Below, in pieces: positions 14,305-47,220 of a stretch of 64,000 nucleotides of DNA. The DNA is from a virus (lineage: Duplodnaviria; Caudoviricetes). Under the pieces are notes generated by a model that did no database searches, was not told where the DNA came from, and was given only the letters and a program-made list of their open reading frames with translations. The stretch spans positions 20,614 through 84,613 of the IMG/VR virus record IMGVR_UViG_2756170314_000001. One strand, written 5' to 3'. Made by a program: the position numbers and the translations under genes. Numbering within the stretch: the stretch's first letter is position 1; each line of letters opens with the position of its first letter.

Positions 14305-14581
14305 AGCAGAATAATTTTAACATAAAATAGTGTTTTTATTATAGAGTCACTTTTTCGTTTTATTCTTCATATGCTAATAGCATACAGTGGTGGTAAGAAA
14401 TTTAAGGACGAGGATGTTTCATTTTTTGTTATGTTTCTGCGACACAAAATTAACGACATAAATAAACACAAAAATATTTACGTGGCTGTACAAATTTTTC
14501 ATTGCCTCAATGGGGATCCATACTGGACACACTATAACTTTGTTGATACAATCACTATATATTAAGTATATATTACGTAGT

Positions 14582-14643
14582 AATATTACATGATAATGTT
14601 ACATGATAATGTTACATGGTAATGTTGCATTGTTGCATTGTTG
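14582..14643. repeat. Short tandem repeats (AATGTTACATGAT-like units decaying into TGTTGCAT)
   Basis: aatattacatgataatgttacatgataatgttacatggtaatgttgcattgttgcattgttg. Confidence 0.75.
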
Positions 14644-14737
14644 TTTATCGTTTTCGAATGAATAAAATATTCGTAAACGAATAAAATAAAAAAGACCGAA
14701 GATGGTGCAACATCTTCGATCTGTAATAGAATAGCTC

Positions 14738-14820
14738 CTGAGGGAGACGGCTTTGTCTAAAAAGCTAAATTAAATGTAGGAACGCTCTGACCGTCACATC
14801 ATTCGTTCCTACTTTTTTTT
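14738..14820 (+). ncRNA. Predicted antisense (antitoxin-like) RNA convergent with comI
   Basis: TAGAAT -10 at 14727-14732; GTAGGAACG/CGTTCCTAC hairpin plus T-run over the comI stop. Confidence 0.5.
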
Positions 14821-14901
14821 GTTGGAATTGGCAAGCGACAAGATTCCGACAATAAGGAGACCAAATTGAAACATCAATCCAAGTGCGCTTTCTACTGGCA
14901 T
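14809..14901 (-). CDS. comI: Competence inhibitor ComI, 30-aa single-TM peptide (not in ORF track)
   Basis: MPVESALGLMFQFGLLIVGILSLANSNKKK; Gln12; AAGGAGGTG RBS. Confidence 0.88.
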   Translation of the reverse strand: MPVESALGLMFQFGLLIVGILSLANSNKKK

Positions 14902-15159
14902 ATTCTCACCTCCTTCTTTCTAGACATGGAGGTGTGCCGTCTGCCCTTTTCCAAAAGCCGTATCTATTACGTTACTTATACTTTAAATGAAAATCTTTCA
15001 AATTACAATATATAGACTGAGCTTGGAACGCAAATTAGGAGATTTGAGTTTTGTACTTTGTGTAAAAGCGCTTACACATTCTGCGAAAGGAGGATTTCTC
15101 TTTCTTACAAAATAAAAAAGAAGCCGAAAAATCGACTTCTCTACAAAAATACTACAGTA

Positions 15160-47068: not shown

Positions 47069-47145
47069 GTGCTCGTAGCTCAGGTGGTTAGAGCATCGGT
47101 CTGTTAAACCGAGTGTCGTAGGTTCGAATCCTACCGAGTACGCCA
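47069..47145 (+). tRNA. tRNA-Asn(GTT)
   Basis: Cloverleaf, anticodon loop CTGTTAA, TTCGAAT, encoded CCA. Confidence 0.92.
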
Positions 47146-47146
47146 T

Positions 47147-47220
47147 GAGGGTTTAGTTTAATGGTAAAACGTCAGTCTCCAAAACTGAAAATGTCGGTTC
47201 GATTCCTTCAACCCTTGCCA
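47147..47220 (+). tRNA. tRNA-Trp(CCA)
   Basis: Anticodon loop CTCCAAA, encoded CCA; T-stem has two mismatches. Confidence 0.85.

Follow-up and report, generated by a model that had tools for sequence, protein, structure and literature searches.

The comI gene of Bacillus subtilis is best explained as the toxin gene of a type I toxin-antitoxin module of the bsrG/SR4 type. The module lies on plasmid pBS32 and includes a predicted antitoxin RNA of about 262 nucleotides; we put the probability of this reading at roughly 0.7. The ComI peptide belongs to a known toxin family, its mRNA has a fold that covaries among relatives, and the promoter and terminator signals of the locus are conserved. From these sequences we infer that an antitoxin RNA is made and that it would neutralise comI. 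The assignment of ComI to a family of type I toxins has already been published (Smith et al. 2024). New here is the predicted antitoxin RNA, which is longer than the one proposed in an earlier note made from the sequence alone.

The window analysed, a stretch of 64,000 nucleotides, is plasmid pBS32 of B. subtilis NCIB 3610: the 601 bases around comI are 100% identical to 20 pBS32 records. These bases match 67 Bacillus plasmid records, the pBS32 records including NCIB 3610 among them, while a blastn search of a phage collection with 14500-15100 returned no match. The window comes from a viral contig record, 84,613 bases long, that has direct terminal repeats; this agrees with the published suggestion that pBS32 could be a plasmid prophage. 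Two adjacent plasmid tRNA genes lie at 47069-47142 and 47147-47217 on the plus strand (Rfam tRNA, 69.7 and 62.9 bits). The neighbours of comI are genes for a GIY-YIG nuclease and a YfbR-like 5'-deoxynucleotidase, both on the minus strand, and RefSeq labels its product 'putative holin-like toxin'.

Much of what is known about comI comes from Smith, Kearns and Burton (bioRxiv 2024), cited here from the accessible part of the text. Induced ComI permeabilises and kills cells, and viability is lowered. Natively expressed ComI is active only when pBS32 is present, in trans, and preferentially in comK-ON cells; the competent cells are killed. In comK-ON cells a comI reporter gives a higher signal only if pBS32 is present, and native comI placed ectopically blocks transformation only when the plasmid is there (Smith et al. 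2024). InterPro assigns ComI to the BsrE-like family, and those of its members that have been characterised belong to type I systems. What restricts expression of native comI, and why are only plasmid-carrying competent cells killed? Both questions are left open in that part of Smith et al. 2024, which names no antitoxin RNA for comI. Nor did we find a report of one in the literature searched, which takes in few of the subscription journals. The accessible parts of two pBS32 papers that use Rend-seq describe antisense transcripts of sigN and none at comI, and those of a 2019 review of B. subtilis toxin-antitoxin systems (PMC6562991) mention neither pBS32 nor 3610.

The minus strand of the locus carries the following features:

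14809..14901, minus strand: comI open reading frame, a 30-aa Hol_Tox membrane peptide; stop codon TAG at 14809-14811.
14980..15008, minus strand: predicted comI promoter, with -35 TTGTAA (15003-15008), a 17-nt spacer and -10 TAAAGT (14980-14985).
14688..14974, minus strand: comI mRNA, about 285 nt, with 5'-3' helix P1, Shine-Dalgarno (SD) hairpin SL1, stop-codon hairpin SL3 and terminator SL4.
14907..14934, minus strand: SL1, in which the anti-SD CACCTCC (14928-14934) pairs with the SD GGAGGTG (14907-14913).
14723..14757, minus strand: 3' arm of helix P1, including CTATTAC (14723-14729) and AAAGCCGTCTCCC (14742-14754).
14687..14722, minus strand: intrinsic terminator of the comI mRNA, a 12-bp stem (14693-14722) followed by a T-run, found by scan.

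The reading frame encodes the single-transmembrane peptide with a KKK tail that had been described from the letters, with a hydrophobic core and an NKKK end. It matches Pfam PF16935 Hol_Tox over profile positions 1-34 with 37.0 bits (E = 3.1e-9), above the cut-off of 23.3; BsrG of SPbeta scores 34.5 bits against the same profile (E = 1.8e-8). The two peptides are 43% identical (alignment A2), and ComI matches the NCBIfam model NF052249 ComI with an E value of 9.6e-21. The KKK tail is encoded by a run of eight As on the minus strand (14813-14820), which also gives the U-tail of the antitoxin predicted below. Three relatives (L018, L022 and L030) have A7, one base fewer; their frame is shifted and the peptide is 40-45 aa long. 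The difference between A7 and A8 may be slip-strand variation of the toxin C-terminus.

The comI promoter matches the consensus at 8/12 positions, below the scan threshold of 9/12; its hexamers and 17-nt spacing are kept in relatives. Transcription would start at about 14973-14974, which is also the 5' end of the match to the Rfam BsrG family. A second promoter-like site, TTTAAA-N16-TACAAT (9/12; 14982-15009, plus strand), lies back to back over the comI promoter and points away from comI. The Rfam match (RF01412, 14697-14974 on the minus strand) covers all model positions, 1-259, with 33.9 bits (E = 3.7e-6). Because this is below the gathering score of 55 (bsrG of SPbeta itself scores 210.4 bits), the comI mRNA is no member of the family by the curated cut-off, yet it is a recognisable relative.

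The 287-nt RNA from 14974 to 14688 has a minimum free energy (MFE) of -99.3 kcal/mol against -68.0 ± 5.5 for shuffled sequences (z = -5.74), and none of 200 shuffles folds as well. Its layout is that of bsrG: a long 5'-3' helix, the SD in SL1, the stop codon in SL3 and a terminator directly after P1. In the probed bsrG RNA, nucleotides 1-35 pair with 232-262, the SD and stop codon lie in SL1 and SL3, and the terminator follows P1 after one nucleotide (Jahn and Brantl 2013, PMC3834814, accessible part). The earlier note had recognised two of these pairings in comI, and both are in the MFE fold. The anti-SD and SD are paired in 93.5% of cells in the alignment of 22 loci described below (helix 5). 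The fold-back of the 5' leader onto the 3' UTR holds in substance: it forms just upstream of the terminator, as part of a long helix that covaries.

Are these helices kept in relatives? We compared 24 loci that have a ComI-like or BsrG-like peptide or the conserved UTR scaffold. The set comprises pBS32, two pBS32-like plasmids about 75% identical to it in this region (L002 and L003), SPbeta (L010) and 20 others. Eleven of the loci (L011-L018 and L020-L022) lie on 24-87 kb plasmids of B. subtilis, B. licheniformis, B. paralicheniformis, B. velezensis, B. altitudinis and B. pumilus, and nine (L023, L028-L033, L035 and L036) came from scans of genomes and viral contigs. L024-L027 were dropped as identical to L023, L034 as identical to L033, and L019 (H95) for having no ComI-like reading frame with an SD. 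The 24 loci include many close relatives, so counts across them are not independent.

The covariation alignment (A3) holds 22 distinct mRNA regions. Its RNAalifold consensus recovers the long 5'-3' helix, the anti-SD/SD hairpin and the stop-codon hairpin. Standard pairs occupy 91.7% of cells across the 22 loci, compared with 40-56% when partners are slid by 1-3 columns. Both sides have changed in 16 of 32 pairs, compared with 7-9 after sliding, and none of 500 shuffles reached the covariation score. In the long helix (helices 1-4) such changes affect 8 of 18 pairs. Helix 1 alone has 5 compensatory pairs out of 7, with the variants GCGATAG/CTATCGC, GCAATAG/CTATTGC and ACAATAG/CTATTGT. Helix 5 (SL1) has 2 pairs changed on both sides, and helix 6, the stop-codon hairpin, has 6 of 7.

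The relatives also differ in what the RNA encodes. In L002 and L003 the place of 14809-14901 is taken by a different, unannotated 40-aa reading frame with no Pfam match (L002:1799-1918 and L003:1796-1915, both on the minus strand). These two loci retain the comI promoter, the 5' UTR, the anti-SD/SD pairing, the hairpin with its A-run, the 3' UTR, the terminator and the antisense promoter. By sequence this looks like a swap of toxin reading frames inside a conserved RNA scaffold; such exchange has also been remarked on for bsrG/SR4 loci (Brantl and Müller 2019, PMC6562991, accessible part). This scaffold is found on many Bacillus plasmids of 24-87 kb, in some cases with a different toxin reading frame, which suggests that it may serve as a mobile platform for toxin cassettes. 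Bacillus sp. WMMC1349 has five ComI-like loci (L023-L027), identical over about 560 nt, three on one contig and two on another. The contigs are 67 and 43 kb long, and the copies may be plasmid segments that are repeated or a concatemer made by the assembly.

On the plus strand we find or predict the following:

14776..14820, plus strand: predicted antitoxin terminator, with a 9-bp stem, a 19-nt loop region and T8; the counterpart of SL3 of the mRNA.
14524..14552, plus strand: predicted antitoxin promoter, with -35 TGGACA (14524-14529), a 17-nt spacer and extended -10 TGaTACAAT (14544-14552).
14559..14820, plus strand: predicted SR4-like antitoxin RNA, about 262 nt, drawn from the promoter, the terminator and homology to SR4.
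14570..14643, plus strand: tandem repeats (13 nt x ~4 and 8 nt x 2.6), within the 5' portion of the predicted antitoxin that is not complementary to the comI mRNA.

A plus-strand hairpin followed by a T-run had been reported over the comI stop codon, and it is there: 14776-14784 pairs perfectly with 14804-14812, T8 follows at 14813-14820, and TAG at 14809-14811 is covered. When both strands of the 64-kb window were searched for perfect stems of at least 9 bp with loops of 3-20 nt and T7 no more than 2 nt away, this was the single site returned; 100 block shuffles gave none. The loop region of 19 nt is larger than in textbook terminators, and the terminator scan did not return the site. The hairpin and T-run stand at the same place as the terminator of SR4.

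Each of the two hairpins was folded on both strands in 20 distinct homologues. Antisense RNA forms the more stable stop-proximal hairpin in 17 of the 20, with a margin of 0.7-10.2 kcal/mol; A·C positions of the mRNA become G·U in the antisense RNA. For the distal hairpin, the comI terminator, the sense strand gives the greater stability in 18 of 20. Such a reciprocal bias is consistent with two convergent terminators. pBS32 itself is an exception at the stop-proximal hairpin (-17.9 kcal/mol sense, -12.6 antisense), with a 9-bp stem that is perfect on both strands, so the argument from asymmetry rests on the relatives.

Where would an RNA that ends at this hairpin begin? Among antisense promoter-like sites downstream of the comI terminator in pBS32, the one at 14524-14552 scores highest (12). 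It matches the consensus at 10/12 positions and has the TG of an extended -10. The element recurs in 13 of the 24 loci, where the -35 hexamer and TTTGTTGATACAAT are invariant and the middle of the spacer varies. The hexamers and TTTGTTGA are invariant in these 13 loci, and the 40-nt upstream flanks are only 47-60% identical between plasmid groups. In the remaining 11 loci, this stretch contains other promoter-like antisense sites, with scores of 9.5-12.5 (for example, TTGACA-N17-TATAAT in L036); in 3 of the 11 (L010, L016 and L020/L021), sense-strand sites there score as well or better. The comI terminator hairpin has no T-run after it on the plus strand, so an RNA starting upstream would be expected to read through to the next terminator. 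Its 3' portion of about 130 nt (14690-14820) would be complementary to the comI mRNA. This falls within the range of 100-140 bp of complementarity given for all five systems studied in B. subtilis (Brantl and Müller 2019, PMC6562991, accessible part).

The prophage locus serves as a yardstick. In a MAFFT alignment the element at 14524-14552 of pBS32 aligns with TTGCAA-N18-TATAAT downstream of bsrG in SPbeta. A start placed at +7 after that -10 reproduces the published landmarks of SR4: GGGC from nt 111, G133, loop L4 at 153-161 and a 3' end at about 183. The method thus recovers a known antitoxin, and the pBS32 promoter is the positional homologue of the SR4 promoter.

Matches of the plus strand to RefA9, SraC/RyeA and MicC had E values of 0.3-2.1 and were treated as chance; Rfam otherwise gave no meaningful family match on this strand, and no antitoxin family. 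In two sets of RNA contigs, 14480-15020 lies within single contigs (3326 and 2581 nt), from which strand, ends and transcription cannot be read. Two runs of raw RNA reads have 0 reads anywhere on the stretch and hence are no test of the locus.

We propose that the module works as follows. In the comI mRNA, running from 14974 to about 14690 on the minus strand, the 5' end pairs with the stretch that precedes the terminator. The SD is locked in a 7-bp hairpin, and as a consequence the mRNA would be translated poorly. A convergent RNA would start at about 14559 from TGGACA-N17-TGaTACAAT, pass over the back of the comI terminator and stop at the hairpin and T8. The terminator hairpin of this RNA would overlap the last four comI codons and the stop codon, and its 3' end would be fully complementary to the comI 3' UTR. 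SR4 suggests by analogy that the loop of this hairpin may touch the mRNA at its stop-codon hairpin, after which the duplex would lengthen, destabilise the comI mRNA and possibly tighten the SD hairpin.

Could comI do without an antitoxin? In this account no working antitoxin is encoded on pBS32: comI is curbed by the fold of its own mRNA, a weak promoter and transcription that depends on the plasmid and on competence, and the plus-strand signals are relics or specify an RNA without effect. The control of comI described in the accessible part of Smith et al. 2024 is transcriptional, as this account expects. The sense-strand preference of the pBS32 hairpin agrees with it too, as do the roughly 80 extra nucleotides with tandem repeats that separate the pBS32 promoter from its target. 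Small-plasmid loci differ in this respect: their promoter lies only 39-63 nt from the toxin terminator. L002 and L003 have related 13-nt repeats; the small-plasmid loci and L029 lack them. Against this account, pBS32 and every pBS32-like relative examined have kept the hexamers, the TG and the T-run intact, while the flanks diverge. In the homologous system, loss of SR4 reportedly causes lysis. Furthermore, the plus-strand promoter (10/12 plus TG) is stronger than that of comI (8/12), as is reported for SR4 and bsrG (PMC3834814, accessible part). We consider the absence of a working antitoxin unlikely; it is the strongest of the competing accounts.

An antitoxin acting in cis does not by itself explain one published result, namely that ectopic native comI acts only when pBS32 is present (Smith et al. 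2024, accessible part). A speculative extension of the preferred reading addresses this. The type I pair may have been re-purposed as a suicide switch coupled to competence, with the repeat extension of about 80 nt (14570-14643) as its regulatory handle. Acting through the 5' repeats, a plasmid-encoded factor or the competent state would reduce the activity of the antitoxin. If true, this would explain why native ComI acts only with pBS32 and in comK-ON cells; we regard it as rather improbable.

The earlier note had proposed a different antitoxin: an RNA of about 80 nt starting at about 14738, made from GGTGCA (14704-14709)-N17-TAGAAT (14727-14732), ending at the same terminator and serving plasmid addiction. 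It held that the terminator of the comI mRNA overlaps this promoter. The minus-strand terminator (14693-14722) is real; the promoter function is not borne out. The letters are present with 17-nt spacing and TAGAAT matches TATAAT at 5/6 positions, but the -35 matches TTGACA at only 2/6, there is no TG, and the scan does not list the site, whose score is 8 against 12 for the upstream promoter. In relatives TAGAAT becomes TAGGAG, without the final T (L013, L017 and L023), TAGACT (L002 and L003) or TAGCAT (L020). Its partial conservation is explained by its position inside covarying helix P1: the hexamer sits within the 3' arm, where CTATTAC pairs with GTAATAG. With the promoter unsupported, so is the length of 80 nt. 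The comparative evidence, which places the promoter at 14524-14552, makes 14738-14820 the 3' core of a longer RNA.

This core does correspond to a meaningful part of SR4. Nucleotides 111-180 of SR4 suffice for function (PMC3834814, accessible part), and 14738-14820 is the counterpart of this minimal active part and folds into the terminator hairpin. The 85-nt RNA has an unremarkable fold (z = -1.87; 8 of 200 shuffles are as good). As for plasmid addiction, cured and comI-deleted strains are viable and in routine use in the accessible part of the published work, which neither proves nor excludes killing at plasmid loss. Taken as proposed, with its own promoter and an addiction function, the short RNA is very unlikely. 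Still less credible is an antitoxin of about 125 nt, fully complementary, that starts at about 14695 from the weak TGAATA-N17-TAAAAT (14660-14688) abutting the comI terminator: the site is the second-best antisense site in pBS32 (score 8.5), and sites resembling TGAATA/TGTATA/TGAATT-N17-18-TATAAT lie 0-23 nt from the terminator in L003, L013, L014, L015, L022, L028, L031 and L036, but its -35 match is low, it lacks the TG, it falls in an A/T-rich terminator tail where composition alone predicts such matches, and the published numbering of SPbeta SR4 fits the distal promoter.

The predicted antitoxin matters because ComI is the reason for the poor transformability of the ancestral B. subtilis strain. 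An SR4-like RNA with defined coordinates is a concrete, testable candidate for a regulator of comI. It also bears on the design of comI constructs, since the inclusion of 14524-14820 decides whether the predicted antitoxin travels with the gene.

How does the module compare with known systems? The earlier note had taken bsrG/SR4, bsrE/SR5 and txpA/RatA as models for a type I architecture at comI, and the choice was sound: Hol_Tox covers both ComI and BsrG, and the BsrG RNA model aligns from 1 to 259. The closest likeness is to bsrG/SR4 of SPbeta. The toxins share a Pfam family, the mRNAs are of similar length (about 285 nt for comI and 294 nt for bsrG) and have the same fold, and the two genes of each module converge. 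In both, the antitoxin terminator, predicted in the case of comI, lies over the lysine codons and stop codon of the toxin, and the antitoxin promoter lies beyond the toxin terminator. Unlike bsrG, comI is on a plasmid. Its predicted antitoxin is about 262 nt long against about 180 nt for SR4, because its non-complementary 5' part has an insertion of some 80 nt with tandem repeats. The SD helix in the free mRNA has 7 bp in comI and 4 bp in bsrG. The read-out of comI is the killing of competent cells, unlike that of bsrG/SR4, and its antitoxin is a predicted one.

The bsrE/SR5 pair of the P6 element and the txpA/RatA pair of the skin element also have cis-antisense antitoxins that overlap the toxin mRNA at its 3' end, with 100-140 bp of complementarity, and SR5 and RatA act through mRNA decay only (PMC6562991, accessible part). 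The hok/Sok system of R1 and the fst/RNAII system of pAD1 resemble comI in being plasmid-borne, in encoding a small membrane toxin and in antisense RNA control, which for comI is predicted. Their toxin mRNAs likewise have a 5'-3' fold-back and a hidden SD. In hok/Sok and fst/RNAII the antisense RNA targets the 5' end, and post-segregational killing is proven; the antisense overlap predicted for comI lies at the 3' end.
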